From positions 3,120-67,119 of the IMG/VR virus record IMGVR_UViG_3300046504_000032: a stretch of 64,000 nucleotides of DNA. The stretch is one strand, 5' to 3'. Below, piece after piece: positions 5,423 to 24,732 of this stretch; positions within the stretch are counted from its first letter, which is position 1; the number at the start of each line of letters is the position of its first letter. Under the pieces are notes generated by a model. The model was not told the DNA's origin. It did no database searches and worked only from the letters and a program-made list of their open reading frames with translations. The translations under genes were made by a program, and so were the position numbers. Origin of the DNA: a virus.

Positions 5423-5470
5423 ATGTCAAAGATATAAAACTATCTTCACAAATAACCTACAGTCATTCAT

Positions 5471-5707: not shown

Positions 5708-5781
5708 TAGCACAGGCAAGAGTCGAACTTGCGATCTCTTGGTTATGAGCCAAGCGAGACGGGCCACTTCTCTACTGTGCA
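5708..5781 (-). tRNA. tRNA-Met(CAT), initiator-like, CCA not encoded
   Basis: Cloverleaf TGCACAG TA GAGA AGTGGCCCG TCTC G CTTGG CTCATAA CCAAG AGATC GCAAG TTCGACT CTTGC CTGTGCT A. The 1:72 mismatch and A11-U24 pair match initiator tRNAs. Confidence 0.9.
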
Positions 5782-5850
5782 ATGTTAAAGAACTAAGGCA
5801 AATTTATTATATCCTTTTGACACTTCCAAATTTATTTCATAAAAAAATCC

Positions 5851-5880
5851 CTAGCAACTCGTACCAGGGACTAACCTAAA
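5851..5880 (-). terminator. Intrinsic terminator of the portal operon
   Basis: TCCCTGG/CTAGGGA stem followed by T7. Confidence 0.7.
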
Positions 5881-5904
5881 ACTAACCTAACCTATGAAAA
5901 AAAC

Positions 5905-7890
5905 CTATGCTACTTTACCTAAATCACCAGAAAACTTATTCACTACATTTGGATTTCCTTTTGCTGCCTCTATTGCCAGAGGATCATTCCCCTCTACTCC
6001 CGGTATCTGTCCCTGAGCTGCTGCAGCTTGCTTAGATCTTACACTCTCAAGTAACCGATCTGCAAATGGAAGTGTAGAATTCTCAAGGTACATCTCAAGA
6101 TCAATTAATTGCGACTGTAGCATCTCAAGTAATGTCTGATCAATCATACTACGGAATACAGGTGTGTTATTACCTGCGGTCACTACAAGTTCAAAGTCAA
6201 CGTCAATGATCTTTTTCGGGTCCCACATCTTAGCTTCCTGACTATATCCTTTCCCGGCTACTGCAAGGAACCTGGGCTCATTGTAGTACTGGCATATAAT
6301 CTTTAATGCCTTGGTGTCTCTATCCTGAATGAAATGGTTAAATGTCTGAATATAGTCAAGGGTGTTCAGGGATGCGTTCTGAGCTTCCTGAGCATATAGA
6401 GCTGCAGGAGTTCCTGATTTAGCCTGACTTCCCTGCATAGCTTCATGTACTCCTGATATCTGAGTTATTAACTGCATCTGAAGGGCAAGCATTTCATGAA
6501 TACCGATATTAGTTGAATTACTCGATATCTGTTCCGGTTTAGTCTGCGACATATTCGGTTTATAGATAATAACCCCATTGAACCTTGTCCATTCATCCGC
6601 AAATTCTTTCGGTGACATCCCTGCAGGTATAACATCCTCCGGTACCATCAGAACTCCTTTAGCGGAAGCTCCAATGATGAAGTCCATAAGGATAATTAAC
6701 CTGTTAATATATTTCTGCTGATCAATGATATCCTCTACAAACCCCCAAACTTCACCGTCCAGTAACGGATATAACGTCAATGCGTATGGGTGCGATTCAT
6801 GGTCATACGGGGTCTCTGATTCAAATAGCACCTGTCCGTATGGAGTAAGGAACTTAACATACCATGACTGCTCAAATACTTCCTCTGCTTCGATAAGAGC
6901 TATTTCCTCATCAGGCATCCCTACAGATCTTCCGAATTCAAGTCTCTGCCTGTTCATTATAGCAATCTCTTTGAGGGTTTCCGGAACTATTGCATAGGTA
7001 CCATCCATGAGATCATGAGCTTTGGTCCTCCATTCTCCTATAAGCTGCCACACTTCTATTATCCGGCAGCTGCTCGGGTCCCTGGGGATATAAAAATCAA
7101 GGTTATCCATCTTTGTAGGATCAAGACCAGTTTGATAAAGGAAGTCCTCTGAGATAACAGTCCTGTATAGCTTACGAATCCTTTCTTCTTCTGCCTTGCT
7201 CTTGGCAAATGTAGCCACTACGTCATCCAGTGTAGTATCAATTATCTCTCCTATCCTGCGGAGATCATTAAGTCTTACGTCTGACACATCAGAATTGAAA
7301 AATATCCTGTTTGGGTTCACGTTCTCTATATAGAGTTCCGGCTGATTACGTTCTCTCCAATAGCGGTAACTTAATTTCTGTATCGGTGCTCCCGAAAGAG
7401 AAAATTCCTCGAAAGCCCTTGCATCCAAAGTCTGTACACGATTTGTCTGTTCTGCAGCCTGTAACGCATTGGTAAGCATTTCAGATATCTTTGCATCCGC
7501 CCTGTCCCTGGCTATGATAACAGCTTGAGGGGGATTGCTACAATACTGACCAATAAGGTTTTTAACAAGCTGTCTGATCTGGTTCTGTTTAAGTGGAACC
7601 TTGCCTTGTTTCTTCAGATAGACCTCCTCTGTGATCATTTTATTACTATCAGGGTCCTTAACAAAATCGGACCATTGATCACCACGATAGTACTTGCGGC
7701 TCCTACGTCTGCGTTTACGGAAGTCTCTGAGACTTTCATAGTCGTTACGACATATATCAAGCAGTCTCATGTTCTCTGTGACTACCTTCATTTCATCAGG
7801 ATCGGCAGGAAGTTGTACCTGTTGCTGCTTTGTCCCTATTTTTGAAAGATTCCTTTTTTTGATGATTTGCTCATCTACATTGCGTATCAT
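5905..7890 (-). CDS. Portal protein (P22-like)
   Basis: 661 aa with YYRGDQW, NQIRQLV, G.VEDIIDQQKYINR and ISGVHEAMQG...SG patterns typical of podovirus portals. Confidence 0.88.
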   Translation of the reverse strand: MIRNVDEQIIKKRNLSKIGTKQQQVQLPADPDEMKVVTENMRLLDICRNDYESLRDFRKRRRRSRKYYRGDQWSDFVKDPDSNKMITEEVYLKKQGKVPLKQNQIRQLVKNLIGQYCSNPPQAVIIARDRADAKISEMLTNALQAAEQTNRVQTLDARAFEEFSLSGAPIQKLSYRYWRERNQPELYIENVNPNRIFFNSDVSDVRLNDLRRIGEIIDTTLDDVVATFAKSKAEEERIRKLYRTVISEDFLYQTGLDPTKMDNLDFYIPRDPSSCRIIEVWQLIGEWRTKAHDLMDGTYAIVPETLKEIAIMNRQRLEFGRSVGMPDEEIALIEAEEVFEQSWYVKFLTPYGQVLFESETPYDHESHPYALTLYPLLDGEVWGFVEDIIDQQKYINRLIILMDFIIGASAKGVLMVPEDVIPAGMSPKEFADEWTRFNGVIIYKPNMSQTKPEQISSNSTNIGIHEMLALQMQLITQISGVHEAMQGSQAKSGTPAALYAQEAQNASLNTLDYIQTFNHFIQDRDTKALKIICQYYNEPRFLAVAGKGYSQEAKMWDPKKIIDVDFELVVTAGNNTPVFRSMIDQTLLEMLQSQLIDLEMYLENSTLPFADRLLESVRSKQAAAAQGQIPGVEGNDPLAIEAAKGNPNVVNKFSGDLGKVA

Positions 7891-7893
7891 AGC

Positions 7894-10800
7894 TTACTTC
7901 ATTTTATATTGTTCCTTCAATGCTTTAATATCTACTATGCATTGCTGCATCAGATCATAGATTGGTTTGGTCCCCTCGACATCTGTAAAATCAACCTGAT
8001 CGGAGATCTCTTTGATATCCTTATCATAACTATCAACTATGTCCTGATACTGCTGATAGTAATTTGAACCTTCTGTAGCCTCAATCCCGGTAGTACTACC
8101 TCCGGCTTCTGCCTGTTGCTGATATGCCCTTTTCAGTCCTTTATGAACTCCTACAACATCCTTCAAATTATAGTAATCTGAGATTATGTTCCACTTACTT
8201 TCAGGTGTTTCTCTTAGGAATTTATTTACGAAGGGTATGTTTTTAAAGTCCACTTCCTGATCTGGCTTTAATGCTTGCGAGATAGTTGTGATAAGATCAC
8301 TAAATACAGCTCCCGAGCCACCCGTATAACCTTTGAATAGATGTTCGATGAATGATGGGTTTATATCAAGGAATCCGGGAACTTTCTTTTCTTCTCCTGT
8401 CTTATCAATATAGTATTTAGTAGCATTCTCGCCACCACCCCAACGGAACAACATATCGGTAAAGAACTTGGCTGCAGGATTCACATTGGATTTCCCAAGT
8501 CCTGAATTGGCAAGCAACTTCTTTTGTGCTTTATCGAAAGGTTCCCTGGCAATGGTATATCCCATGTAGTTGCGGTTTGTCGCAATCTCATAGAATGGTT
8601 TTATTATAGTAGGTACAATAGGTGCAAGACTAAATTCCCCCGTTTTACTGAACCCTCCAATATCAACAGGAGACATTGCAGATCCAAAGTTAAGCATAGC
8701 CTTAGTGATAGCTTCTTTAACAGTTGTTTTCCCCTGCGTGAGATCATAGGCAAGCGATCCGATACTCTTAAATCCTCTCCAAAATTGAGGTAGTGGAATA
8801 CTCAGGTACTTGTTCCCCTTCGATTCTCCGGAGATCAGTCTCGGCAGATTAGGCAATACAAGATAGTTTTCCCTCATGTAGGGATTGATATTGTAATAAT
8901 CATTCTCTGGATCCTGGTCATCGGTTGCATGGTTCAATAATGCTTCGAGAAATCCTAATGCCATAAATGCTGATGCTACTGCAGCAAACCGTTTTGGATA
9001 ATCCTTTCCGAGCTTGAAGTTCTTTTGTAAGCTCTGCCATGCTACATTCCAGAATGCGTAAATAGAATCATATAACTTACTCGATTTCCCTTTACGATTG
9101 AAATTAACTGAGGCCTCTTTTGCATCTGAGGCAGCTTCCTCTTTCGTTTTACCAAGATCAATAGAAGTAAGATAAACGGAGAATCTTGTTGCGTCCTCAA
9201 ATACCTGGTTCCACATGGAGATTATCTGAACAGATTCATGCATAAAATGTTTTATATCACCCCGGACTGTTCCCCTTCCCACCATGCGGTTTATTTCATC
9301 CATAAGATCTTTCTCAAGGTCCTCTGCAGAAAGCAAATGAGTAAATCCTGTTGCACCTCCGGTAAGATAAAAGTCCCTGAGCTTAACGTCATCAGGATTG
9401 TTCATATCCAGTTTATCACGTAGGAACCTGATTATAGACGGGAATGCCCTGTGGTAATTAACGACTATCTTTTGACCTGCATCACCTCTGATTAATTGGG
9501 TCATAGAGGCTTCCTGAACGTCACGAAGGAAGTTGGTAAACGGGAAAACAATATTCCATGAGGTATATGCTGCTTTTAAGAAATTGTTCATGTAGGATAA
9601 TCCGGTGACTGCCTGGTTAAGCGTTCTTGCATCCTTAACCTTGCTGAAGATGTTATGATACATAAAATTGCGCTTATTCATTGCCTGAGCTACCGAAAGC
9701 ATCTTACCTTTGAATATCATTACAACATCGCCTCCTTGTCTGCGTACAATGACTTCATGTTCCCGGGCTTGTTTCGGAACTCTTAATTTCTGATATTCGT
9801 TGTAGATCTTTGTTACTGCTTCGCCAGAATCAAACAATTCCTGTGAGGGACGGTCAAGCGTAGGCTCCCATTCATGAGTACCGTCTGGAAGATCGACCCT
9901 GATATAATATAGTTTTTTAACTGTAGCCAGATCATACAGGTCTGCGCTCTGCAGGTTGCGCATAAGAAGCCTTAGCATTGAAGTCTTAACTTCGTTATCT
10001 ACCTGTTCTCCTATTGCGCTGAATGCAACACTCTGCATGTATGCCAGAGGATTATCCGCAAGTGACTTTCTTCCTGTAGCGTGCATCAATGACTTCTTAA
10101 ATCCTTCACCCTTGACATATACCAGGTCCTTAGCAGCGCCCTCTCTCCATCCCCTGAGTGGAACAAAGTACTTGAACTGCTCAAGATACATCTGTTTCTG
10201 TTCCGGAGATAACTGCTGTCCGGCCTCCCATATATCAAGTATTGCAGATGAGGCATTGTGTATATTTGACCATAGTTCATCTATAAGGGGCTTTGATACC
10301 TGTTCCTCGAATTCATCCGATATTGTCTGAGCAAGTTCATCAGGATTAGTGAATTCGTCATTAACATCGAATGCCATCACTCCTGAATAATCTTTATCCG
10401 CGATTTCCTCTTTCAGCTCCGCGATATCCTGATCCGTAGCGTCAGGATTCTTCATAATAAACTCATCAATCTCCCTGGCTCTGAATACCATATTGCGCTC
10501 AATAGCGTGTTTGCTGATGATATATGGAAGAATATTCTCACCTGACATTCCCCCTTTGATGATCTTTGCTACCGATTCCTGGATTGGCTTCATCTTTGTT
10601 TTCATGAAGTCCTTGTAAAGAGTTTCCTGTCTGCCGAATGATAAACTTATATCCCTGTATGGTTTGGCATCATTAGGTTGCAGCCCTCCACGTTTAATGA
10701 TCTCCTCCTCAAACTTACGGACAGGGAGGTTATTATCCTGAATATATTCCCTGATGCCATTAACAGTTTCCTGCCAGTTACGCTTGGTCTCTGCCTGATT

Positions 10801-13800
10801 AGTATAGACTTTCCCTGCATTGGCAAGATGTTCCCCTACGAAAGTTGACTTTGGCCTGCGCATATAAGCGATCTGATTGAGGACATCTACCGGGGTGTTA
10901 TCATATATGACCATACTCTGATCTTTCTTCATACCGTCAATTCCTGCCCGGGACAAGAATAAAGAGGCTTCCCTGTCACTTCCATATAGATCGGTGATTT
11001 TATTATATAATGCCTCCCCTGAATGAAACGCACCTGAAACTGTTATATCAAATTTGTTTTCAGCATCCAATTGATTGACTATATTCTCCTGTTGATCATA
11101 GTCAATAGGTTTATCCCATGACAGGAAATTGAGTTCATCCGGAGCTTTCCCTTTTCCTACAAGTACCTTATACATTGCAGTCGGGTTTTTGGGTTCATTA
11201 TCAAAAAGATAATTCCTTGCGTCCTTAACTATTCTATAATGTCTCTCAAAGTTCTGGTACTTCGTCATCTTTGATTCAAGATAATCAAGGGCTTTATTGG
11301 AATCAAAATCATTATTTGCCAGGGCTTTTTCTATCCAGCCCGTAGCTTTTGTCCCTATCTGGCTCTCTGCCACTCCGAAATATGTCCGGTAGTCCTGATT
11401 GCCTTTCCCGATGGCTTCCTCTATTGCTCTTGATTCTGACGCATGTATTCCATAACCAAACCCACCCTCAGCCTTTCCGGTCCTTGTTGAATATGCTGTG
11501 AGTGCATCCAGGTAATCTCCAATATTGGCATAGTCTGTTACCTCTGGCTTATTATTAGTGAGGTTATCCTTGGCTTTTTTCAGAAGTGCCATGATCTCGC
11601 TTTTCGACATGGAAATATTCAATATCTTTCTGATCAGATTTCTTATGTACGCAATGATCCGTTGCCAGAGATTGGGATTTATCTGCCCGTTTCCTGCTAT
11701 GTACCCGATATATTCCTCGGCAACCGTTTTCCAATCACTCTCAGGGACGTTATACCTGTTTGCAAGTTCAACTACATCAACCGGTGACATACCTGTATAT
11801 GTAAGCTGCAGTACTCTCAGATATGGTTCCACTCCGAGTAATGCCTCAAGTCCATAGTGAGCGAATACCTCATGAGACATATTACTTACCAGGTCCGAGA
11901 CTGATTTATTGTCCTCAACTACTAAATAGACTTTCTTATTAGCCCTGTCATATACTGACGGGATCTCGCTTTTACGCAGGTCCCCGAATCGTTTTATCGC
12001 ATCTTTGACCAAATGCTTCGGTAATTCCTGTTTTGTTCTGACAATAATGATCGGTACTCCCGTATATTCGCTCATTATCTGAGCCCTGCGCATCATCTCA
12101 TGTTCACGCATGACTGCCACTTCCTCCCCTGCAAAGGTACCAGGAGTAGCCTGATATTTAGGGAACTGAGCATTATCCCAAATTGGGCGCATATTCTCGT
12201 CATTAAGGTCCGGTTCTTTTGGTCTGCGCATATATGACGGACTTGGTTCAGGAGAATCCTCAATATCCTCATCAAGAAGATTGTCCTTTGATGCATCAAT
12301 CTCATCAAATTTTTCCTTTATCATCCGGGACTTACTGGCTATTTCTTCAAGTATAAGGTCCTTTGTGGCCTCAAGGGGAGCTTCGTCATACTGTTTAATG
12401 TAATCAGTCAGTATCTCCCTTGTTTTTTCACCATGTTCCGGATTTGATACCTGTTCCCTGAGCCATGCGATCTTTTGATCTCTCGTAGGAGTTACTATCG
12501 GTTTAGGATTTTTATTCATCCCATTCTCAGTCTCCTCCTTCATTTTTTCTTCAAGGTCCCGTACTTCTCTTTCGGTATTATCAAGTTTCTCCTGTTGTGC
12601 AAACTTCTTTGTAAGAGTATTCTCGAATGTTGGAATATCGTTCTGATGCTGTGCCAGACGTTTTTCAACATCTTTCAGTTTACCGTCAAGGAAATTATTG
12701 AACTGAATCTTCAATGACTGGAAGAATCCTGCTCCGCTTGTGCAATATCCGGTTATCTTGGCTTCTGCACTACTGCTCTGTACCGGTTCAACCTGGTAAA
12801 CGAACCTGTCATTTCGACCATCATAAGATAGAAATATTGGAACAGGAATATCATTGATCTTCAGAATAGATGTTTTATTTTCGCCTACCCCGGCTTTAAA
12901 CAAATCAATCATTTTGGTCAGTTCAAGATTGAATCCTTCAAGTAATTTCTCACCCTGATATTGTTTTCCATTAAATGTGATTGACTTAATATTAAGCCCT
13001 GATGTAGTTCCTTCTCCCTTTCCCTCCAATGGTTTGAAATACTTCCTGATCAGTTCGGTTGCATTCTTAACGTCCATAAGTGCATCAGTCAGATAACCGA
13101 CTATTGTTCTGGCGTTTTGCAAACCTTTCTTGGCATCAATCATTCCACGTTCATAGTTCCGTCTGCCAGTCTGTAGTTTCTTGAGTTCATACATCTTCTG
13201 AGTATGGAGAATAGCATACTGACTGCCCGATAATGTAGCCATCATCTGAGCAAAAGTCATGTCGGTAGCATCTTCCTCATCAGCTGCATCATTAGCCTCC
13301 CGGTCAAGTTTATCGCCTTTCATCATCTGATTGATGAACTTCATTTTAATATCAAGCCTCTGGAAAGCTGTGGCATCGAGTGTCTTTTCAACGCCATAAG
13401 TGACTACTTCAACCGGTAGTCCCATATCCGCATGCTGATTACCCTGCCGGAGTATCCTACCATTGCGCTGTTCAAAATCCATTGGACGTATGGGTGCGTC
13501 AATATGATGAATTGCTTTAAGGAGATCCTGCACATTTACTCCTGTTCCCAATTTTCCGGTACTGCCGAGTACTATACGAACCTCTCCTTTGTTTACCCTG
13601 TCATAGATAGCCTCTCTCTGTCCTCCTGACTGATCTTTTATTATCACAATCTCCGTTGCAGGTACTCCAAGTTTCATTAATTTATCCCTTATATCCTCAT
13701 ATAAGTTGAACCGGGGAACCGTAGACCCGAGATCAGGTGATTGGAATATATCAGAAAAGACAAGTTGTGTTCCTTTATAGCTTGTGGTCTCGTCATAAAT

Positions 13801-16800
13801 TCGCTTAACCTGCTTCACAACCTCGTTTGTCTTACTTCCGGGATCGTCATAATTGGCTGAATTAATCAATCGGAGATCAATAGCCGCCTGTTTTGCCCTT
13901 CCAAATATAACCAGTGGTACATGGCGCTGCAGTCTCTTTTCTTTTCCGGGTAGTTGTTCCCATGCTTCAAGGATATTCTTGAATTTCTCCATAGCAGTTT
14001 TCACTCCCTCTGACTGTGGAATGATTATCTGCGTATGTTTCCCGTCCTTGAGTTTGGGAATAGTCTTTGCTTCCTTGAATTCCGGTACATCTTCTGTCAG
14101 GACTACATAAGAATTAGCTCTGAATAGTCTCATGAGCTCAGGAGCATTCTTGTATGACTTGAATCTCTTAACAACCTTAAACTTACCGGCTGCAGTAAAC
14201 TCCAATGAAGGTTCGATGGATCCAAAGGTGGATGCGAACTGATCAAAGGTATTGATATTATGTTTCTTTAAAATCTCAGGAGCAATGTATTTCATCATGG
14301 TCCATACTTCAGCCATAGTATTACTGATTGGAGTACCGGTAGATAAGATCACATTCCTTCCGTTCATTTTTTCCTGAACGAACTTAACCTTCATATACAA
14401 TCCGAATGCTCTCTTTGACCCCTTGGTGTCAATCCCTTTGATATTCTGAAGTGCAGTAGCAAATCCAAGTTTCTTGTAAGCATGTGCTTCGTCAACAAAT
14501 AATGCATCTACTCCCATTTTCTCAAATAGCCTGACATCATCCTTACGTCTGAAAGCCTGTTTCTCAAGTTGTGTTTCTTTACTCAGATTGCTTCTGGCTA
14601 TATCCTTTACCTTTTTGGTTTTCTTTTTGGTAGGATTATCCATTTTGAACATCTGCTCATTCAGGGCTTCGATTGATTTCTTGAGGTCACTTGCAATCGG
14701 GTTATTCCAGGAACCATCATCAACTTCATCAAGTACCTGCTGCAGTTCTGCTATCCTTTCCTGGATATATGCTCTTTCCCTGGCAGGATCATCAGGTATG
14801 AAGTCAAGGAAACTCTGCGGTATTATTATCGAATCCCAATCTCCGTATGCTATTTTATTGAAAATCAACTGTCTCTTTTCTGCCTTCATCTTATTCAGAG
14901 GAGGAGGAACGAGTATTTTTGCTGCAGGGTATAACTCCCGAAATGAATTAGAGAACTGTTCAAGTGTCGAATTCTGGACCACTATCATCGGTTTCTTTGC
15001 GAGTTTGAGCCTGCGCATTTCCATTGCAGTAGTGATCATTGTAAAAGTCTTACCTGTTCCAACCTGCATAGCAAGAAGTGTACTTTCTTTCAGGGAACGC
15101 ATCACCCCTACCCTTTGTATTCCATAGAGTTTTATATCTTTTGATGCTCCAGGGAAATGATCAAAGGAAGGTGCGTTATAGTTCTTCTCAATAAAGTCGT
15201 TATACTTAGCATTATATACCGTTTCGATCTGTTCAACGTATTCAGGTTTGTCATAGACATAATTTACGAAGGTATCCATGATATCATCCATCTTACCCTG
15301 TGCCTGAGCTGTAGCTTCAATATCTACCTTTTCAGTCTTGACCCTTCTTCCATCAACATAATCATAAGATGTTCTGACAACTCTCGGTGTGCGTAGATTA
15401 AGGGATTTCTCAACTAATTCCAATCCACTAAATTCCTCTGTACCTGCGGTTTTATTCTTAGCTCCGTACTGCCCGTCATGTCCCCTGACTATCCAATGCC
15501 CTGTTGCATTGCTATATTCGATAGTAGCATTAACGTCCAGATGATCTTTCACAAACTGCTTCACCATATCCCCGGGGATCCAGGGAGTGCCAAGACTGAA
15601 TTTTACTAACTGTCCCGGAATGTCTTTAGGAACCACCGATTTGAGTGCCTCAACATTCTTTAGATATAATGGATTGTCTTTTGATGCTTCGAGTGCAGTA
15701 TTGTATTTCGTTCTGACGAACCCTGAAAGGTAAGTGTCTTTATCCTCGATCTGTTCTGTTGCAGGATTGCGGAATACCAGACCTTCTTCGAGTAATTCTT
15801 GTGTAGCCTGTTCCTCTGTCATTCCCAGGATGGAAGCCATGTAAGGGATATCTACAGCATTACGATATGAGATTGAGATGTTAAGCGCATCTTCAACATT
15901 TCCTGCTGTAGTTGGTTCTATTACAGGGAAGTTGACCCTCTTGGTGAATATGTCAGATTTATCAATGAATTCTTTTCTGATATTTCTTCCATTCTTATCT
16001 AATTCAGAAGTATGAGAGACATTCTCAAGGGCTGCTACTGCGTTGTGTTCAGAATCATCCTCAAGGAATTCGAGTGCTTTATTGTTATTGATCTTACCAT
16101 AAGACTTAAAGAAACCGTCATATTCCTTATTAAGGTTGGCACGAACAGTCTCAAGTACTTTAGGGTCAGCATCGGGAGACTGTTCCATAGTGATCAGATC
16201 ATTTGCAAGTGATTTGATCTTCAGGTAGTCATCAGCGATCTTATTAGTCTTGTATGACTTGCCCTTTACTTTGATGGTTTTATCGTTCCATTCTGTAAGT
16301 GCAAGGTCTCCATTGACCACTTCATAGATCTTACCTCCTCTGTTTACTATAGTACCATTACGTTCCTCATCGTTTGCTGCTATTAGTTCTTCCGGGGGTT
16401 TATTTTCTGCAGTCTCCATGATGCTTTTTGGCATCGTGGCTATACGAGTTGCAAGTTCTGTGATGAGGTCTTTCCCTCTTATCGGTGCGAGTGTCTGACG
16501 GTCTGCTGAATATAATCCTCCTCCTCCGGCTTCATGTGCAAGCATCATCTTCCCAAGCATGTTATCAGGATTCTCTGCAAAATATTGATTTACTTCGATC
16601 TTAACCGGTAATCCATCTTTAGTCTCTGCATCACCGATTGGTACTGTTATTCGAAAGTCTTTAGCATTTGGACTGATGATATCACCGATACGTTTACGGA
16701 AGATCACTATGTCAGTTGTAACTTCTGTTCCTGCATTCTCAGCAAAGGCATTATTCGGAAGTCTTATTGCTCCTACAAAATCAGCATTACCCTCTGTTAC

Positions 16801-19800
16801 TACCCATTCCCTAAACTTTGCACTTGCCGGACTGTCAAGACTTGAATTAGAAGTGATAAACACTCCAATTCCTCCCGGCTTGAGCTGACGAATTCCTTTT
16901 GCAATGAAATAGTTATGCAGGTAGAACTTGGATATATCCTGATTCTTGGCATCGAATGGTGATGTTTTGCCAAATGGTACGTTTGTGATAATAAGATCTT
17001 GTGATGCAATAGGTTCATTGGATAATTCATACCCTTTCACATTCACTCTTGCCTGTGGATAGAGTTTCGTCATTATCCTGCCGGTGATACTATCAAGTTC
17101 GTATGCTTTGAGTATTGAATTGTCCTGCAGATATCCAGGCATTGCACCAAAGAAGTGACCTATACCTCCTGCAGATTCAAGTACATTACCTCCCCGGAAC
17201 CCAAGTTGTTCTGCCAGGTTCCACATCTGCCGGATAATAGGAATGGAGGTATAATGTGCATTGATTGTAGAATTTACAGCATTATTAAACTCATCAGGAG
17301 TTAATAGTGAGAGTAGTTTTTTATGATAGCCGCCATACTTTTTGTGCCATTCTTCATGCCACCTGGGTTCTGCCCATTTTCCCTGATCGAGAACTGTAGC
17401 AAGTCCTCCCCATCCGGTATATTTTGCAAGGATGTCCTTTTCTTCCGGAGTAGCATTCCGGTTTTCTTTCTCAAGTTTCTGAACTAATTCTATTGCAGAG
17501 ATATTGGCTCTTATCTTTGCAAATTCCCCTTTAGGAACGAATGCCTCATCAGTAATGACAAAGTTACGATCAGCTAAGTTTTCAGGCTGCGTTCTATTTC
17601 CGGTATCTGTCCTTTGAGTTCTCTCGACCACTCCGGAGGATCCTCGTCCCTCATCGGTGCTAAGAAGTCCGGTATTGTCGCCTCCTCTGCCTGGTTGCGC
17701 TGTCTCCCGGCTGCGATTAATTTCTGTATGTTCGCCTCCGCTTTGTCCACCATTGAGTTCAGGTAGTGTTGGAGTTTGTTCTGACGATACAGGTCCACCA
17801 GTTTCGGAAGGTCCCACTCCTCCAACCATTGGAGGTGTACCCTCGCCAGGGGTGTCTCGAATCCCTTTATCTCTAAGAGGTGTTGTGGCTTTTTCATGAG
17901 TGATATTTATATTATCAAAGTTACGTTTATCTGTAGATTTCTCATAAGAATCAGCAAATTTTTTAATTGTCCTTGCGAGTTCTCCGGCTGTAACATCGGC
18001 CTGAATCCATTGATTATTCATACCGGAATATTTCTTTGCCTTTGTGGTTAGTCTCCACAATATAGGACCATAACCCTGTCCATGTCCCTCAATTTTCCAT
18101 AATTCTGAATAATCTCCGGCAAATTCATTTGTCGGGTTGAACGGGATACTGACATACACACCGAGATCTGTTCCTGGCTTCCACAAAATAAAATGAGCAT
18201 CACCTCCTGCAGGTGCAAGATTTACATTGGAATATTCGATCTTCTTACCTTTCCTGTCGGTATCGTGTTCCCATCCAAGAAGTTTAGCGATCTCTTTTGA
18301 AAACTTAGTTACGTCTTTTTTGATGATGGGTTCAAGTCCCCTGTGAGGATATTCATGTGTACGATAATACTCCTCCGGTATTTTATATTCTCCGAGTAGT
18401 TGTAACTGGCTGTCGATCTCGGCTATCTGCCTGTCAATTTCTTCGGAAATTTGTCCTGCTTGTTCACGATCTGCAACATTCTCTGCTTGGTTGATGATAG
18501 CGCTTGCCTGATTTTCAATAGACGTAATGCTTTTTGATTCGGTTCCATTTTCTGTCTCCTCCTTTATTCTATTTGATTCTGTGATAGTCCTACCTTGATT
18601 TTTAAGATTATTCATCCATGTTTTCATGAATGAAAGTGTATCATTCATTCCTTTCTGGTCAATAACTTTACCTTCAGCAATAAATTCCTGATATATAGGA
18701 GGATTGCTTTGTTCAAAATTTAATGGCACTATAATATCAAGCGAAGGATATACTGCAATATCAATTCTTGGATCTGTCATTAAATCTCCTTCCTGAATGT
18801 AATTGTGCTCCATGATCAGACGATATGCCTTCGGGTCTGGAAATAACATGTGATATGAGCCAAGCGTTTGGGCTTCAATGACGAATGGCATAATAGCATC
18901 ACCACGTTTACCAGATTTAAAGTAATCTCCAACTTTAATACTTTTTAGGATCGGGATTGCTTTTAATATCTGTTTATGTGCTAAAAGAACACTCTGTCCA
19001 AAATGAGTATAAGGCATAGCATCCTTGAACTTCTGTAACTCCTTCTGTTCGGGTGTGAGTACTGGTTTCCCTTCAAACAGATCATTTACCAGTTTTAGTC
19101 CAAGTTTCTGTTTGATAGCAGCAACAATGCTCTCAGTATTGGTCCAGTCGAGTTTGTTATCCTTAATTAGTTGATTAATTTCACTATGATCAATGAGGTG
19201 ACTGGCATAGTCACGAGCCTTGATGAGATTGGTTTCCCAACCGTCTTTAGGTCTATATTCTATTGATTCCCCGGCAAATTCGGGTTTTGGTGAAGGCTGC
19301 TGCTCCGCACTACCGACACTTTCAGCCGGAGCAGTTTTCTCGCCTCCGTTTATTTCTTGCGTCTGCTCTCTGCCTGTTTCTGCAGATTGCTGAAGTGAGA
19401 GTTCATCTCCGGTACGTGTTTCTTCAAGGAGGACACTCTTTTCCGTTTCGGTAAGTTCTCCCTGTTGCTGCAAACTCTTGATTTCATCTTGTAGCCTCCG
19501 CTTTAAATCCGCTTCATCTATAGGTATATGACTGAAAACGGACTCTGGTTGTACTTCATTCTGGATATCATTATCGTAGAATGTAAAAGTTACATTATCA
19601 TTGTCTTTGTAAAGATCGTAAATCTTCCTGATATTAGCAAGAGAATTGGCAGATGTTTTTACATGGGTATCTATCCCTATGGACCTGCGTTCTTCTTTCA
19701 TCCTTGGAATAACGCCCTCAATATAGGCAGTAAATGGGTCTCTCCATACATAAAGTATATCAACTTCCTTTCCATTCTCAAGGGCTTTCTCGATACGTCC

Positions 19801-22800
19801 CTTACTGGTTTCGAAGTTAGCCATGTTACTGTCATAGATCAGATAAGGAGGATTTTCCTTTTCAAGTTTCAGGTTAAGGGCAGTTGTTTTTCCTGCACCG
19901 GTACCTCCGGCTGTCATTACAACATAATTATTCTGTTCACTTGCAGGTTCACCTTGTATCAGATCATCATACAGTTTCTTTGCAAAATCAGAAGCAGGGT
20001 CATGTACTGCCTGGGAGAATTCAGTCGGGTTATTGCGATAGTCAGGTGATAGCGACTTAGCATGATCACCAGATATCACATTCCCAAACTTACTAAGATA
20101 CTCAGCTTTGTATCTTTCATAGTCATCAGTCAGGGCTTTTGCGAACCTGTCGTGGACGATCCTGTGGATTCCTGTAAATTCCTGCTTACCTTCGCCTTGA
20201 GTTCTTTCAGGAGTTCCCTCTGCGCCTGCAGTATTGAGATTCCCTTTACCTCTGCCCTCTTTTGGACCAGTTGGTTGAATTGGTTTTTCAGTTGTTCCTT
20301 TGACATTTTCTAATGATTTTTTATAGGTTGCTTCATTATTTAACCATTCATTATTGAAATATTTACCGTCAATTTCCTTCCAGAGATCCAGGTCAACGGG
20401 TTTCATCGTGTTTGCCTTATCCCATCCCCACACCTTGAACTGATCTATCGGCATCTGCTTGATCTCACCTAATCCTCTCCACTTGGGTTCAAAATTTTGA
20501 AGATATCCTGCCCTTGCATCCCAATCACTTTCAAACCCTATCATTACCTTTGGCTCGTCATACTGTCCTGTATCAGGATTGATCTGATCAATGACGTAGA
20601 TATCCTGTCCTGGTTGTATATTGCCAAGATAAACATCCAAAGGTTCACCGTCAGGGGTAATTGTTCCGAGTATATGACCGTAATCATGGTTTAATGTCAC
20701 ACTCCATTTCTTACCACTTAGATCAGTCCCGGTCCTTATCATGCCCTTGGCTGTCTCAATGGAGATATCCATTCCAAGAATAGCGATATGCCCTTTCGGA
20801 TAAATGCCTGATTCTTTCTGAGCATCAGTAGGATTAGGTTCAACATCTTCCCGGGCTTCTTCGATCTCTCCCTTTATCTCATCTGCACTTTTTAGTCCCC
20901 CCGGGACCATCCTTGGTCCTTCATGTGTCTCATGTAGCAAGCGAGAATAGACTTTAAATAATTTCAGCATTGTAGGTTGCATCTCATCTGGCGAAGATGA
21001 TTGCCCTTTATAGAAAACATTTACTGAGGCAAAGTCAGGGTCCTCATCAACTTCAAACTTCCATCCCGCTTTCTCAACTCCGGATTCGATCTTTTTCATC
21101 AGGGCGATACCTTCTTCCCTGGTTTTAGGTTCGTCAATCTCTTGTTTAATGTCCTTCCAGAATCCCTCATAGTCAATCTTCGATTCAGCTTCCTCTTTTG
21201 CCAGTCTTGACATCTTGTCGAGAGGGGATTCTTCGGATGCAGGTATAAATCTTGGGTTATTATAAGCGTTCCAATCCTCGGGTCTATGCTGTACATCGGA
21301 ATCAGATATTAGCCTGAGTTTAGCCATACCTTTTTTGTCAGGTTCAATAACTTCATATTGTATGCCTGTGAACGTATCACGTATAAGATCACCTTTTTTG
21401 AAGTCCTTTGGATTTTGTTTCTCAATAGGTTTTGATGTAGGTTTTAACTTTTCAAGTATCTCTGTTAGTTTTGTGTTTTCTCCTTGATGTTCAATACCCC
21501 TACTGTCAAGTTCTCCGATTAATCTTGCAGCATAAGAAGATGGCAATGTTTTGACGAGTGCGCCTAGTTGATCTTTATGAAGTTCAATTTCTTTCTTGAT
21601 TGTTTCCATTGAAACATTCTCAGCATTAGAAACATCATCACGATTCATCCCGGGTCTCTCTGCTAGAATAGATTCTCTTACTGTTAATTTCTTCCCTTCT
21701 CTTTTCTTCAATACTGCAGCAAGTCTTTCTTTGCCAAGAGCTGAATTATCTTTTTGTAAGGATAGTAATTCATAATCTTTATTCTTTTCAGCATTATCAA
21801 TGATCTCTTGTTTCTGTCCTGCAGGAGTTTTTACAGTAGATATTACTTCCGGCTTCTCAATATTCTGTGTTACTATCTGCTGAATCTGTTTTTGATCCAT
21901 TCCGGAAATATCCTCATCACTATACCCAAGTCGTTTAAGTTTGGGCATTAAGAACTCCATTGGATTCAAGTTAATTATTGGTCCTTCCCTCCCCCCAATA
22001 ACAGGAGTAGCGCCTTCATGAGGCGCTTTCTCCTGCCCCCTCTCAGGCTTTGGTGCCTCGGCCTGAGCTTCCATTGGTTTTATATCGGGATAATATTTTT
22101 TTACCTCATCATAGATACCGGGATATTCTTTGAGTACTTCCGGAGGGACAGGTTTACCCTCTTTGATAGCCATTGCTACAGCGCCTTTATGACCGAACCA
22201 CCAAGGACCTACAGCTTTTCCTGATTCATCCCTCGGAGCCCAGGGCGACTTATAAGTGTCCTGATGCCATCCTGCTGTTGTCTTATCCTTCCATGCCTCA
22301 TATTGCTTCCCGGTCATCTGGTAGGGTTCTAAACCTTTGGGGTTTGTCTCTTTCAGATTTTTGGCTTCTTCAGCGGCTCTTTCTTCCTGGCTTGCAGGTT
22401 GCTCTTTCTCTTTGTTTTTTTTAACTGACTTTTCTTCCGTAACTGGTTTATTTTCAACAGAGGCACCCTTTTGGTCAGGGGTGACTTTAGGGGTGACTTC
22501 TGGTGTTAATGTCTTAATCTTATCATCGAGAGACTTCTGCAGATCGGGGTCAAGTATGATCTTTATTTTCTCAAGTGTCTTGAGTGATGAGGTATGGTTT
22601 ATTGCTCCCTCTATGGTAGAACGGTCAACCTCATCTTTCCCGATGAAGTATGACGTGACCATTTCCGGGAACTTCTTCTTGTACATCTTATCAAGTTCCT
22701 CGTCACCTTCAAATCTCAATCCATACAAGTCCTGTGGTGTCTCGGCTCCGATTATTGCGCCTTTGATATATCCTTTCGATACAGGGTTCCCGTCTTTCTC

Positions 22801-24732
22801 GTATATCGGAACGTCTGACTTGCGTACTTCTTTACCGTCAACCTTGACGGTTTCCTCTACGGGTTCCTCGAATTTGGCGTTTATATCCTTGAGTTTGTCC
22901 GGGGGAATTTCTATTGCTTCACCAAATTCTCCATTATCCTTAACCTCATTCACCTTGACGGTACCATCGAATCCTATCTCCTGCACCTCCCAATTCCGGC
23001 CCATGTAGGTTATCTCGTCCCCTACTTTTGCAGTCTTATGAGCGAGATCTTCATTAGCCTGTCTCTCGAGAGGGTCAATCGGTGCGCCAGTTTTTGGGTC
23101 TTTTATCGGTTCGTCTCCTGCGAATCCGGAGATATAACCCTTCTTTGCCCTGTAAGCATCGACCCCCATATCGACAAATTCCTGCGGGGTCATTGTCTTT
23201 TCAACCTTCCAACCATTGATAAACCGGCCTTCTCTGTCTATGATACGTACAAGTTTATCATTGACTATTATTGATCCGTCAACAGGATTACGTTCAATCC
23301 TGCTGAGTAAGGCGTATGTACCGTCATCAAGTACCTTAGAACCTTTCTGAAAATATCCCTTTCCGTCAACATCGGTCATCATGTTTACCGCTACCGGCTT
23401 ACCTGTCTTGGGATGAATCTCTGCCACTCTGTTCAGAAGGGAGGTCATTGTCCTTTCGGCATTATTGGTATATATCTCCTGTTCGATAACTGGCAATGCT
23501 TCCTGATTAGATTTCCACGCATCAAGAGCTTTCTCTCTCTCTCCATTGGTCATAGTGATCTGGTCAACGATATTTTCCCGGGCAATATCCTTAAAGTTCA
23601 TCTTACTGTCCATGACAGTTATCTTGTTTGGATCAGTTGGATGGTCCCCTACCTGTTCGTAAACTTTCCCGTCTTTATCCTGAATGATCGTTATTCCTGA
23701 TTTCTTGCGTCTCATGTAGTTGTAACTCTCATTCTGTGCTGCGGTTATACTACCAAGGAATGTGCCAAGGAACGCACCGTCCCGGAAGGACTTCAATCCA
23801 TCAGCAACGACATTCATAAGAGCGATCTTATCTTCCGGGTACTTGTTTAGGTTCTGCAGCATCTCCTGTGTCATAGTCATAACACTGAATGCTCCGCCTG
23901 TCTTGACTGCGTTCTTTCCTATTTTACCTGCCAGATTGAGATATTTTTGTGTTGCCCCTGGAACGTCTGCCAGGTATCTACGAAGAATATTTGATGCTAA
24001 TTCAGGATTTTCCCTGAGTACCGTTGAGGCAGCCGACCCTATCATTGAATTGACTGCCTTACCTCCGGCTCCTGCTACCTCTCCGGCAAGGTACATGATC
24101 AGTCCCGACCCAAGTCCAACAGCCTGTTTCTGAAACTCCGGTGTCTTGTGTCCTGTTTTTTCATCATAAAGTTCTGATTCGAGTATTGAGTTACCGTATG
24201 CACTTGTAGCGAAAGCAGCCATAGTCCCCTGTCCTATGATAGCAGGTATAGCAGCGAGAGAGGTACCCCCGGTAGCTAATGATGCAGCTGCAGACGCACC
24301 CATGCCTAATATCATTGGCATCCATGCACCTACTGAAGATAAGCCACTCTCGGTATAAATCTCATTATTCTTTTTTAGGTTCTCTCTTGCTTTTTCTTTC
24401 AGCACTTCAGATGCTATCATGCCATTCATCTGCCCTGTTCCCGGGAAACTGCCAGGCATTCCTACTATTGGCAGTATTTCTGCAAGGAATGACTGCAACC
24501 CTGATCCCATCTGTAACCAACCTTTTCTTGACTGTTCCCTGAACTTACTATCCTTGCTGAACATAAAAGGCCTCTCAACCCATTCATTATGCTGTGCTGC
24601 CTGTTCTGCTGTCTGCGGGTCAAAAGTAGAAGTAGGGAGTGGTGCTCCCGCTGTTTTTTTCTTCTGTATATCCGCTAATGACGGGAATCCTTTAGGTCCT
24701 GTCTGTAGGGTTTGATCTACTGTATCTGGCAT
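7894..24732 (-). CDS. Giant polyvalent virion/ejection protein (DarB-like methyltransferase-SNF2 helicase plus accessory domains)
   Basis: 5612 aa. Approximate domains: PPase-like 20420-20830; P-loop kinase AGGTGAGKTT near 19900; DUF1249-like 18590-18830; MTase VLESAGGIG and NVPFG 16440-17560; helicase VGTGKT/VDEAH/QRNGRILRQGN 13300-15150; HEVFAH metallopeptidase near 11860; LPD38-like C-terminus. Confidence 0.9.
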   Translation of the reverse strand: MPDTVDQTLQTGPKGFPSLADIQKKKTAGAPLPTSTFDPQTAEQAAQHNEWVERPFMFSKDSKFREQSRKGWLQMGSGLQSFLAEILPIVGMPGSFPGTGQMNGMIASEVLKEKARENLKKNNEIYTESGLSSVGAWMPMILGMGASAAASLATGGTSLAAIPAIIGQGTMAAFATSAYGNSILESELYDEKTGHKTPEFQKQAVGLGSGLIMYLAGEVAGAGGKAVNSMIGSAASTVLRENPELASNILRRYLADVPGATQKYLNLAGKIGKNAVKTGGAFSVMTMTQEMLQNLNKYPEDKIALMNVVADGLKSFRDGAFLGTFLGSITAAQNESYNYMRRKKSGITIIQDKDGKVYEQVGDHPTDPNKITVMDSKMNFKDIARENIVDQITMTNGEREKALDAWKSNQEALPVIEQEIYTNNAERTMTSLLNRVAEIHPKTGKPVAVNMMTDVDGKGYFQKGSKVLDDGTYALLSRIERNPVDGSIIVNDKLVRIIDREGRFINGWKVEKTMTPQEFVDMGVDAYRAKKGYISGFAGDEPIKDPKTGAPIDPLERQANEDLAHKTAKVGDEITYMGRNWEVQEIGFDGTVKVNEVKDNGEFGEAIEIPPDKLKDINAKFEEPVEETVKVDGKEVRKSDVPIYEKDGNPVSKGYIKGAIIGAETPQDLYGLRFEGDEELDKMYKKKFPEMVTSYFIGKDEVDRSTIEGAINHTSSLKTLEKIKIILDPDLQKSLDDKIKTLTPEVTPKVTPDQKGASVENKPVTEEKSVKKNKEKEQPASQEERAAEEAKNLKETNPKGLEPYQMTGKQYEAWKDKTTAGWHQDTYKSPWAPRDESGKAVGPWWFGHKGAVAMAIKEGKPVPPEVLKEYPGIYDEVKKYYPDIKPMEAQAEAPKPERGQEKAPHEGATPVIGGREGPIINLNPMEFLMPKLKRLGYSDEDISGMDQKQIQQIVTQNIEKPEVISTVKTPAGQKQEIIDNAEKNKDYELLSLQKDNSALGKERLAAVLKKREGKKLTVRESILAERPGMNRDDVSNAENVSMETIKKEIELHKDQLGALVKTLPSSYAARLIGELDSRGIEHQGENTKLTEILEKLKPTSKPIEKQNPKDFKKGDLIRDTFTGIQYEVIEPDKKGMAKLRLISDSDVQHRPEDWNAYNNPRFIPASEESPLDKMSRLAKEEAESKIDYEGFWKDIKQEIDEPKTREEGIALMKKIESGVEKAGWKFEVDEDPDFASVNVFYKGQSSSPDEMQPTMLKLFKVYSRLLHETHEGPRMVPGGLKSADEIKGEIEEAREDVEPNPTDAQKESGIYPKGHIAILGMDISIETAKGMIRTGTDLSGKKWSVTLNHDYGHILGTITPDGEPLDVYLGNIQPGQDIYVIDQINPDTGQYDEPKVMIGFESDWDARAGYLQNFEPKWRGLGEIKQMPIDQFKVWGWDKANTMKPVDLDLWKEIDGKYFNNEWLNNEATYKKSLENVKGTTEKPIQPTGPKEGRGKGNLNTAGAEGTPERTQGEGKQEFTGIHRIVHDRFAKALTDDYERYKAEYLSKFGNVISGDHAKSLSPDYRNNPTEFSQAVHDPASDFAKKLYDDLIQGEPASEQNNYVVMTAGGTGAGKTTALNLKLEKENPPYLIYDSNMANFETSKGRIEKALENGKEVDILYVWRDPFTAYIEGVIPRMKEERRSIGIDTHVKTSANSLANIRKIYDLYKDNDNVTFTFYDNDIQNEVQPESVFSHIPIDEADLKRRLQDEIKSLQQQGELTETEKSVLLEETRTGDELSLQQSAETGREQTQEINGGEKTAPAESVGSAEQQPSPKPEFAGESIEYRPKDGWETNLIKARDYASHLIDHSEINQLIKDNKLDWTNTESIVAAIKQKLGLKLVNDLFEGKPVLTPEQKELQKFKDAMPYTHFGQSVLLAHKQILKAIPILKSIKVGDYFKSGKRGDAIMPFVIEAQTLGSYHMLFPDPKAYRLIMEHNYIQEGDLMTDPRIDIAVYPSLDIIVPLNFEQSNPPIYQEFIAEGKVIDQKGMNDTLSFMKTWMNNLKNQGRTITESNRIKEETENGTESKSITSIENQASAIINQAENVADREQAGQISEEIDRQIAEIDSQLQLLGEYKIPEEYYRTHEYPHRGLEPIIKKDVTKFSKEIAKLLGWEHDTDRKGKKIEYSNVNLAPAGGDAHFILWKPGTDLGVYVSIPFNPTNEFAGDYSELWKIEGHGQGYGPILWRLTTKAKKYSGMNNQWIQADVTAGELARTIKKFADSYEKSTDKRNFDNINITHEKATTPLRDKGIRDTPGEGTPPMVGGVGPSETGGPVSSEQTPTLPELNGGQSGGEHTEINRSRETAQPGRGGDNTGLLSTDEGRGSSGVVERTQRTDTGNRTQPENLADRNFVITDEAFVPKGEFAKIRANISAIELVQKLEKENRNATPEEKDILAKYTGWGGLATVLDQGKWAEPRWHEEWHKKYGGYHKKLLSLLTPDEFNNAVNSTINAHYTSIPIIRQMWNLAEQLGFRGGNVLESAGGIGHFFGAMPGYLQDNSILKAYELDSITGRIMTKLYPQARVNVKGYELSNEPIASQDLIITNVPFGKTSPFDAKNQDISKFYLHNYFIAKGIRQLKPGGIGVFITSNSSLDSPASAKFREWVVTEGNADFVGAIRLPNNAFAENAGTEVTTDIVIFRKRIGDIISPNAKDFRITVPIGDAETKDGLPVKIEVNQYFAENPDNMLGKMMLAHEAGGGGLYSADRQTLAPIRGKDLITELATRIATMPKSIMETAENKPPEELIAANDEERNGTIVNRGGKIYEVVNGDLALTEWNDKTIKVKGKSYKTNKIADDYLKIKSLANDLITMEQSPDADPKVLETVRANLNKEYDGFFKSYGKINNNKALEFLEDDSEHNAVAALENVSHTSELDKNGRNIRKEFIDKSDIFTKRVNFPVIEPTTAGNVEDALNISISYRNAVDIPYMASILGMTEEQATQELLEEGLVFRNPATEQIEDKDTYLSGFVRTKYNTALEASKDNPLYLKNVEALKSVVPKDIPGQLVKFSLGTPWIPGDMVKQFVKDHLDVNATIEYSNATGHWIVRGHDGQYGAKNKTAGTEEFSGLELVEKSLNLRTPRVVRTSYDYVDGRRVKTEKVDIEATAQAQGKMDDIMDTFVNYVYDKPEYVEQIETVYNAKYNDFIEKNYNAPSFDHFPGASKDIKLYGIQRVGVMRSLKESTLLAMQVGTGKTFTMITTAMEMRRLKLAKKPMIVVQNSTLEQFSNSFRELYPAAKILVPPPLNKMKAEKRQLIFNKIAYGDWDSIIIPQSFLDFIPDDPARERAYIQERIAELQQVLDEVDDGSWNNPIASDLKKSIEALNEQMFKMDNPTKKKTKKVKDIARSNLSKETQLEKQAFRRKDDVRLFEKMGVDALFVDEAHAYKKLGFATALQNIKGIDTKGSKRAFGLYMKVKFVQEKMNGRNVILSTGTPISNTMAEVWTMMKYIAPEILKKHNINTFDQFASTFGSIEPSLEFTAAGKFKVVKRFKSYKNAPELMRLFRANSYVVLTEDVPEFKEAKTIPKLKDGKHTQIIIPQSEGVKTAMEKFKNILEAWEQLPGKEKRLQRHVPLVIFGRAKQAAIDLRLINSANYDDPGSKTNEVVKQVKRIYDETTSYKGTQLVFSDIFQSPDLGSTVPRFNLYEDIRDKLMKLGVPATEIVIIKDQSGGQREAIYDRVNKGEVRIVLGSTGKLGTGVNVQDLLKAIHHIDAPIRPMDFEQRNGRILRQGNQHADMGLPVEVVTYGVEKTLDATAFQRLDIKMKFINQMMKGDKLDREANDAADEEDATDMTFAQMMATLSGSQYAILHTQKMYELKKLQTGRRNYERGMIDAKKGLQNARTIVGYLTDALMDVKNATELIRKYFKPLEGKGEGTTSGLNIKSITFNGKQYQGEKLLEGFNLELTKMIDLFKAGVGENKTSILKINDIPVPIFLSYDGRNDRFVYQVEPVQSSSAEAKITGYCTSGAGFFQSLKIQFNNFLDGKLKDVEKRLAQHQNDIPTFENTLTKKFAQQEKLDNTEREVRDLEEKMKEETENGMNKNPKPIVTPTRDQKIAWLREQVSNPEHGEKTREILTDYIKQYDEAPLEATKDLILEEIASKSRMIKEKFDEIDASKDNLLDEDIEDSPEPSPSYMRRPKEPDLNDENMRPIWDNAQFPKYQATPGTFAGEEVAVMREHEMMRRAQIMSEYTGVPIIIVRTKQELPKHLVKDAIKRFGDLRKSEIPSVYDRANKKVYLVVEDNKSVSDLVSNMSHEVFAHYGLEALLGVEPYLRVLQLTYTGMSPVDVVELANRYNVPESDWKTVAEEYIGYIAGNGQINPNLWQRIIAYIRNLIRKILNISMSKSEIMALLKKAKDNLTNNKPEVTDYANIGDYLDALTAYSTRTGKAEGGFGYGIHASESRAIEEAIGKGNQDYRTYFGVAESQIGTKATGWIEKALANNDFDSNKALDYLESKMTKYQNFERHYRIVKDARNYLFDNEPKNPTAMYKVLVGKGKAPDELNFLSWDKPIDYDQQENIVNQLDAENKFDITVSGAFHSGEALYNKITDLYGSDREASLFLSRAGIDGMKKDQSMVIYDNTPVDVLNQIAYMRRPKSTFVGEHLANAGKVYTNQAETKRNWQETVNGIREYIQDNNLPVRKFEEEIIKRGGLQPNDAKPYRDISLSFGRQETLYKDFMKTKMKPIQESVAKIIKGGMSGENILPYIISKHAIERNMVFRAREIDEFIMKNPDATDQDIAELKEEIADKDYSGVMAFDVNDEFTNPDELAQTISDEFEEQVSKPLIDELWSNIHNASSAILDIWEAGQQLSPEQKQMYLEQFKYFVPLRGWREGAAKDLVYVKGEGFKKSLMHATGRKSLADNPLAYMQSVAFSAIGEQVDNEVKTSMLRLLMRNLQSADLYDLATVKKLYYIRVDLPDGTHEWEPTLDRPSQELFDSGEAVTKIYNEYQKLRVPKQAREHEVIVRRQGGDVVMIFKGKMLSVAQAMNKRNFMYHNIFSKVKDARTLNQAVTGLSYMNNFLKAAYTSWNIVFPFTNFLRDVQEASMTQLIRGDAGQKIVVNYHRAFPSIIRFLRDKLDMNNPDDVKLRDFYLTGGATGFTHLLSAEDLEKDLMDEINRMVGRGTVRGDIKHFMHESVQIISMWNQVFEDATRFSVYLTSIDLGKTKEEAASDAKEASVNFNRKGKSSKLYDSIYAFWNVAWQSLQKNFKLGKDYPKRFAAVASAFMALGFLEALLNHATDDQDPENDYYNINPYMRENYLVLPNLPRLISGESKGNKYLSIPLPQFWRGFKSIGSLAYDLTQGKTTVKEAITKAMLNFGSAMSPVDIGGFSKTGEFSLAPIVPTIIKPFYEIATNRNYMGYTIAREPFDKAQKKLLANSGLGKSNVNPAAKFFTDMLFRWGGGENATKYYIDKTGEEKKVPGFLDINPSFIEHLFKGYTGGSGAVFSDLITTISQALKPDQEVDFKNIPFVNKFLRETPESKWNIISDYYNLKDVVGVHKGLKRAYQQQAEAGGSTTGIEATEGSNYYQQYQDIVDSYDKDIKEISDQVDFTDVEGTKPIYDLMQQCIVDIKALKEQYKMK
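17574..17897 (-). CDS. Nested +1-frame gene inside the giant ORF (TnpV-like helical protein)
   Basis: 107-aa globular-looking ORF with its own TAACTTTG box (17923-17916) and AT-rich start. The host frame here is low-complexity linker. Confidence 0.65.
   Translation of the reverse strand: MKKPQHLLEIKGFETPLARVHLQWLEEWDLPKLVDLYRQNKLQHYLNSMVDKAEANIQKLIAAGRQRNQAEEATIPDFLAPMRDEDPPEWSRELKGQIPEIERSLKT

Follow-up and report, generated by a model that had tools for sequence, protein, structure and literature searches.

Same-strand gene pairs in which the smaller member lies wholly inside the larger are exemplified by Rz1 inside Rz of phage lambda, an embedded +1 pair in which the small gene has its own start and both products are needed. 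A further point of reference for the locus described here is given by the DarB-like proteins, which shield incoming phage and plasmid DNA from restriction. The third is TnpV of the Tn4451/Tn4453-type mobilisable transposons of clostridia, which is known as a free-standing transposon gene and was postulated to act in excision on account of its likeness to lambda Xis (PMC3158075). In the present study a stretch of 64,000 nucleotides, hereafter the window, covering positions 3,120 to 67,119 of the virus record IMGVR_UViG_3300046504_000032 (67,119 bp, judged complete), was analyzed with regard to a small TnpV-like gene that is nested out of frame in a giant gene of the polyvalent, DarB-like type.

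Compared with these systems the locus shows both likeness and difference. Mobile elements carry both TnpV and the nested protein, each small, helical and some 100 residues long, but TnpV is encoded by a free-standing gene beside a large serine recombinase, whereas the gene in the window lies entirely within a giant virion gene and out of its frame. With Rz1/Rz it shares the position of a small gene contained completely in a larger same-strand gene, in the +1 frame and with a putative start of its own; unlike in that pair, the nested gene is a member of an old and widespread family, while the younger-looking reading is a disordered linker of the giant gene, the host is a polyvalent gene of 5,612 codons, and a functional link between the two products is a proposal. 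The host gene in turn resembles polyvalent proteins and the DarB-like antirestriction proteins of P1 in its string of InPase, Zeta_toxin, methylase, SNF2 helicase and LPD38 domains. The features on which the argument depends are the following:

17574..17897, minus strand: nested gene (product P0002), ATG, 107 codons and TAG, in the +1 frame of the giant open reading frame (ORF)
7894..24732, minus strand: host gene of 5,612 codons (product P0001, 5,612 amino acids), a quarter of the genome, polyvalent and DarB-like
17575..17931, minus strand: linker in the giant frame (about residues 2268-2386 of P0001), of low complexity, predicted to be disordered, open over the nested gene
15136..17574, minus strand: start of the methylase module (N6-adenine methylase, conserved, from alignments A2 and A5), directly after the nested stop

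The nested ATG lies at an offset of 6835 nucleotides in the giant ORF, which is 1 modulo 3 and hence the +1 frame. From stop to stop the nested ORF measures 110 codons (17574..17906); it is the longest off-frame ORF on the same strand of the giant gene, the runner-up having 78 codons, and a gap of 3 nucleotides separates its stop from the conserved N-terminus of the methylase module. A sequence-only reading of the window had described a same-strand +1 ORF of 107 amino acids, preceded by TAACTTTG and an AT-rich start, ending just before a methyltransferase domain and overlapping mere filler in the main frame. All of this was recovered: the ORF runs from ATG to TAG, TAACTTTG occupies 17923-17916 and is followed by 18 AT-rich bases up to the ATG, the end of the ORF lies immediately before the methylase N-terminus, and the giant-frame reading across it is rich in G, S, T, E, R and P (local G+C 0.53 against about 0.40) and predicted to be disordered, yet kept open. 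The peptide quoted in that reading corresponds to residues 18-46 of the nested translation.

We consider it very probable that 17574-17897 is dual-coding, with both frames protein-coding: the +1 frame holds a gene of the TnpV superfamily, for which a separate product, an origin by read-through and an accessory role are proposed, and the giant frame forms a linker that is read through. Statistics on a single sequence are weak here, and the comparison with relatives decides the case. Thirteen disjoint close pairs of relatives (74-99.8% nucleotide identity) were compared over profile-defined nested cores. By giant-frame codon position, differences at positions 1, 2 and 3 numbered 133, 73 and 58 inside the core, against 2694, 2128 and 5627 outside it (chi-square 115, P = 1e-25), and among the 264 differences inside the core the nested frame had 123 synonymous changes, the giant frame 52. 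Where the ORF had been picked outside the linker (pairs L068/L076 and L062/L068), the ordinary position-3 pattern was seen. In a second comparison 11 pairs were binned by position; the other two, whose first member was a duplicate lacking a stored start, were left out. Giant-frame position 3 accounted for a share of 0.41-0.43 of the differences in the 600 nucleotides upstream, 0.22-0.29 in the nested ORF and 0.61-0.69 downstream, a change along the bins that locates the switch in selection at the borders of the nested ORF. Within the window's own lineage, differences from locus L002 fell 36, 32 and 61 times on nested-frame positions 1, 2 and 3, and identity was 54/103 amino acids in the nested frame against 39/99 in the giant frame.

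As judged from these substitution patterns, purifying selection is shown to act more strongly on the nested frame than on the giant one. The sequence of the giant-frame linker, on the other hand, is shown to drift freely but to be kept free of stops, which permits read-through into the methylase-helicase module: the giant frame is open across all 60 unique nested ORFs, with a median chance of 0.11 per locus under synonymous permutation of the nested codons. The position skew together with the open giant frame indicates that both frames are maintained, the nested one for its sequence and the giant one for its openness. In this pair a small ORF is contained completely in a larger same-strand ORF of another frame, both frames being open in relatives, and many phages and elements conserve the arrangement. 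The suggestion that a selected same-strand +1 gene lies inside the giant gene was therefore upheld by the skew in close relatives, the switch at the borders and the comparison with L002, and the two-frame comparison of substitutions among homologues that had been proposed for it gave a clear answer, in the skew (P = 1e-25) as well as in the synonymous counts.

The nested peptide has relatives in sequence databases. An exhaustive phmmer search of 1.84 billion representatives returned 13 proteins at E <= 1e-3 (best 64% identity, E 5e-35), so that a lack of homologues, which had been envisaged earlier, was not borne out; P0003, among the closest relatives, shows 68% identity. Most of these homologues have about 100 residues and share a clear helical pattern. 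Eight of ten homologue clusters checked lie on contigs of at most 2.5 kb, while P0124 (287 amino acids) and P0130 come from contigs of 79 kb and 10 kb, respectively. P0124 and P0123 (394 amino acids) bear an N-terminal copy of the nested peptide, 58-64% identical, which is followed by another 180-290 charged, helical-looking residues.

Relatives of the giant gene were collected with alignment A2 of the methylase N-terminus and comprised 233 loci (80 from IMG/VR, 73 from metagenomes, 80 from GTDB). A profile of the database homologues of the nested peptide (A1) was run on 14,459 six-frame stop-to-stop ORFs of at least 40 amino acids from these loci and the window. It matched 73 distinct ORFs at E <= 0.01, and every one of them (73/73) shares the giant gene's strand and is +1 relative to it; matches near the methylase start were present in 55/80 IMG/VR, 10/73 metagenome and 3/80 GTDB loci. 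With the broader profile A3 (E <= 1e-3), 120 of 120 matching ORFs were in the +1 frame, distributed over 64/80 IMG/VR, 30/73 metagenome and 25/80 GTDB loci, where it has to be considered that 53 of the 63 A3 rows were drawn from the same loci, which match by construction. In most GTDB loci, mainly of Bacillota, the nested ORF is situated farther upstream of the methylase start (median 1.4 kb). Weak +1-frame matches to the nested profile (E 0.003-0.01), 1.4-2.2 kb upstream of the methylase start, were also seen in L091, L164, L184 and L195, and some giant genes may hold the nested ORF in a different linker, or in two copies. Searches of phage and plasmid collections with the DNA of the region (blastn) and with P0002 (tblastn) gave no match, nor did tblastn of the nested peptide of L065 against plasmids; single proteins used as query for related loci returned no confirmed relative, and alignment A1 offered no sufficiently conserved stretch for such a query. 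The nearest clusters to the nested peptide in a protein atlas, scoring 0.84-0.86, are unnamed and serve as leads only.

Structure prediction also separates the two frames. For the nested peptide, AlphaFold2 with a 63-peptide alignment predicted a helical bundle with helices at residues 16-28, 30-38, 42-62, 67-79 and 98-104 (mean predicted local distance difference test (pLDDT) 91.0, predicted template modelling score (pTM) 0.79), whereas the giant-frame reading of the same DNA, modelled with a 54-row alignment, showed no secondary structure (pLDDT 64.9, pTM 0.16). A small, all-helical protein of about 100-125 amino acids is the trait of TnpV, and P0002 with 107 amino acids agrees with it. Direct searches of Pfam and PHROG with P0002 found no family at default thresholds. 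Among the members of the nested family, however, 25 of 63 match Pfam TnpV (PF14198) at E <= 0.01; nine of ten relatives tested list TnpV, three of them (L058, L035, L045) above the curated cut-off with 28.2-28.6 bits. Aligned by hhalign, the profile A1 of the window's clade and A6, that of the clade with the members passing the cut-off, agree over 67 columns (96% probability, E 4.4e-9). Since the relatives match TnpV and hhalign ties the window's clade to them, the nested protein can be placed, by this transitive route, as a divergent member of the TnpV superfamily, though not as a member of Pfam TnpV itself.

Comparison with solved structures gave less. The best match of the nested model was PDB 2apl (PG0816 of Porphyromonas gingivalis, a DUF1896 protein), with a Z score of 6.5 and a root-mean-square deviation of 2.6 over 63 residues, which for helical proteins is in the noise range; Foldseek returned E 1.9 for the same pair and no match at E <= 0.001 in PDB and BFVD. 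Sequence-profile matches in PDB were to designed helical repeats only and were taken as spurious. An identity with DUF1896 (PF08989) was considered and rejected at the sequence level: P0002 has no match, one of the 63 family members matches at E 0.0012, and hhalign of A3 against a DUF1896 ORF of locus L151 gave a probability of 2.3%.

Signals for a separate start were looked for in the relatives, a Shine-Dalgarno motif being scored as GGAG or GAGG at -18 to -5 of an ATG. Of 60 unique nested starts, 33 are preceded by such a motif; among control ATGs of the same loci the figure is 449 out of 5,496 (8.2%; P = 3e-20). In nine further loci it occurs in front of another in-frame ATG, three or four codons upstream of the start chosen by rule. 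All nine low-G+C loci of the Bacteroidota type, the window included, have A/T-rich leaders and lack the motif. Genes without a Shine-Dalgarno sequence are usual in Bacteroidota. Upstream of the nested ATG the window shows:

17898..17915, minus strand: leader of 18 nucleotides, AT-rich, without a Shine-Dalgarno motif
17916..17923, minus strand: TAACTTTG, a candidate -7 box of the Bacteroidota type by motif match, which also encodes R-N-F in the giant frame

The window contains 74 matches to TAnnTTTG, a pattern that we take to be the -7 promoter box of Bacteroidota, where 54.8 are expected; nine of the 74 lie on the minus strand within the giant gene. An exact copy starting 23-26 nucleotides before the nested ATG is present in three of the nine low-G+C loci (the window, L002 and L084), against a background of 0-7 copies per strand of 5-6 kb. 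From this motif match an internal promoter of the nested gene is put forward as a hypothetical candidate.

Several observations weigh against the proposed dual coding. P0002 itself reaches no more than 13.1 bits against Pfam TnpV (E 0.094; curated cut-off 27 bits), and a six-frame search of the genome with that model returned nothing at E <= 1; the likeness to TnpV that the sequence-only reading had claimed by eye accordingly stands at the level of the superfamily, via the relatives and hhalign, and fails for the window's protein as a direct match. Likewise, its suggestion of separate expression agrees with the conserved ATGs and the Shine-Dalgarno enrichment in relatives, but the ATG in the window is itself without a Shine-Dalgarno motif. 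Two of the 13 close pairs show no skew (differences at positions 1, 2 and 3 of 2, 1 and 3 in L086/L087, and of 20, 18 and 17 in L015/L022), and another single pair has no difference inside the core. At long range, mean pairwise identity is 0.235 in the nested and 0.248 in the giant frame (1,711 pairs), a comparison that is uninformative because the low-complexity linker inflates identity. In Sinorhizobium phage PBC5 the TnpV-like sequence is in frame in a form of 2,185 amino acids; either a fused form exists or the record carries a frameshift. Finally, when synonymous codons were permuted, the +1 frame of the nested span remained open in 1.15% of gene-wide and 5.2% of local permutations, and shuffling of the codon order left it open in 0.75% of cases, so that judged on the window's sequence alone its openness is mildly unusual (P about 0.01-0.05), which is suggestive. 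Taken further, this last point would make the nested ORF a product of chance in a hydrophilic, G+C-rich linker: only 15 of its 112 codons have T at the second position, for which reason +1 stops are rare from composition, and a +1 ORF of at least 110 codons arises somewhere in the gene in 26% of gene-wide synonymous permutations. Composition can account neither for the homology to the TnpV family and the scarcity of substitutions at giant-frame third positions, nor for the Shine-Dalgarno enrichment and the fold predicted at pLDDT 91, and we regard a chance ORF as having a close to negligible probability.

The layout of PBC5 leads to a different explanation, namely that the TnpV-like segment has no separate product and ribosomes translating the giant frame enter it through a programmed +1 frameshift, yielding a truncated N-terminal polyprotein with a TnpV-like tail and a stop before the methylase. 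As deposited, PBC5 has the TnpV-like sequence as the in-frame C-terminal end of orf33 (2,185 amino acids) and a methylase frame that opens separately, PHROG 938 holds the segment at profile positions 2084-2173 of 2185, and in some loci the stop-to-stop nested ORF reaches up to 75 codons upstream of the ATG. A frameshift, however, has no need of a Shine-Dalgarno motif, which stands before 33 of 60 starts against 8% of controls; an ATG is conserved at the N-terminus of the homologous region, and the arrangement in PBC5 may be a one-nucleotide error or mutation in a single record of 2001. We judge frameshifting to be very unlikely. A shade less probable still is that the nested family is real and the window's ORF an unexpressed relic, left intact only by the tolerance of the linker. 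The missing Shine-Dalgarno motif and a promoter known as a motif match only would agree with a relic, but a Shine-Dalgarno motif is absent from all nine low-G+C loci alike, the ATG and the full length are intact, the differences from L002 are concentrated at nested third positions with the nested peptide more conserved than the giant-frame one, and the peptide is predicted to fold with high confidence. As to PBC5 itself (L236/L237, record 24700-27963), its giant gene is split and the methylase frame is open from L236:1233, overlapping orf33 by about 570 nucleotides; PHROG 938 is labelled 'endolysin'.

Under dual coding, translation of the small protein would begin at the nested ATG, apart from the giant product. 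A Shine-Dalgarno motif at the right distance would serve this start in most related lineages, while in the window's phage, of low G+C and Bacteroidota type, the -7-like box 18 nucleotides upstream of the ATG may provide a transcript of its own. With regard to origin, the small gene may once have stood just in front of a methylase-helicase gene, until an ORF farther upstream, in a different frame, came to extend across it. Two loci are relevant here: L151 has a free-standing DUF1896 gene (L151:1672-2118, Pfam 112.9 bits) that ends at the start of the homologous methylase gene, in the same relative position as the nested gene in the window, although kinship between the two could not be supported at the sequence level; and L092 has a weakly TnpV-like ORF (E 2e-4 against A3) about 700 nucleotides upstream of a stand-alone methylase gene. 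Together with the disordered, fast-drifting giant frame they fit the capture of a small upstream gene by read-through, and from these few cases we infer a formerly independent gene, as the sequence-only reading had proposed. Giant polyvalent genes may accordingly gain length by extending across their neighbours. The embedded gene would then be the older member, of a wider family, and the long frame its disordered filler, which is the reverse of textbook overprinting.

Whichever domain precedes it, the nested gene keeps its position at the start of the methylase-helicase module, and this constancy points to a function connected with it. Since the two are always inherited together, an accessory role is proposed as a guess: the small protein most likely serves the methylase-helicase module, whether as a helper in assembly or packaging, a regulator or a DNA-binding partner. 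DarB-like proteins may thus have in it a cofactor, regulator or packaging helper that had been missing from their description; a regulatory or inhibitory role towards the methylase-helicase or kinase domains, as suggested in the sequence-only reading, would be conjecture. A bolder and rather doubtful extension is that DarB-like methylase-helicase antirestriction proteins have the TnpV-like protein as an obligatory partner, inherited with them because it is encoded in their linker, always in +1, so that the two are never separated, and that this association has lasted in phages and conjugative elements from several bacterial phyla. If this were true, it would be a rare case of an old gene overprinted by a younger read-through frame and not the reverse.

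The nested gene has escaped annotation in cultured phages as well. The nested peptide of Klebsiella phage SopranoGao (L078), encoded in +1 of the coding sequence 3115..16224, led to 21 records of 12 cultured phages (of Klebsiella, Erwinia, Pseudomonas, Vibrio, Sinorhizobium, Ochrobactrum, Agrobacterium and Microcystis), and in 21 of 21 records the giant gene was the sole annotated feature beneath the match. Gene callers disallow long same-strand overlaps, which is why a conserved protein is unlisted in all 12 phages; it is probably unlisted in many other DarB-like or polyvalent genes, too. In the literature searched, judged partly by titles and abstract openings, no description of a TnpV-like gene nested in a polyvalent or DarB-like gene was found. 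A word search of the text of the paper on polyvalent proteins (Iyer et al., 2017, PMC5512222) yielded none of the terms TnpV, overlapping, alternative frame, frameshift, linker or low-complexity.

The host gene is located directly upstream of the portal gene (5905-7890; phrog_156, E 2e-72). Pfam domains in its product are InPase, DUF6908, Zeta_toxin, Eco57I methylase (match at residues 2579-2645), SNF2-rel_dom, ResIII, Helicase_C and LPD38, and on the basis of this domain string the protein was classed as polyvalent and DarB-like; it combines many conflict-related enzyme domains, including a methylase, an SNF2 helicase and an LPD domain, as is characteristic of polyvalent proteins. Its relatives bear the RefSeq name 'DarB-like antirestriction'. 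In synonymous shuffles of the giant gene the longest +1 ORF had a mean of 102 codons, against 78 in the real gene outside the linker, and the real sequence seems to be enriched in off-frame stops there. A direct repeat of 10 nucleotides, CGTAACTTTG, flanks the nested gene on the minus strand (17916-17925 and 17559-17568). The two copies are 357 nucleotides (119 codons) apart, each holds TAACTTTG and each reads R-N-F in the giant frame; the candidate -7 box is part of the first copy, and the second is situated 5 nucleotides past the nested stop. The repeat could be due to chance or be the scar of an in-frame insertion. Opposite the giant gene the plus strand has antisense ORFs at 22337-23008 (223 codons), 14588-15127 (179) and 19528-20049 (173), which are maybe compositional.

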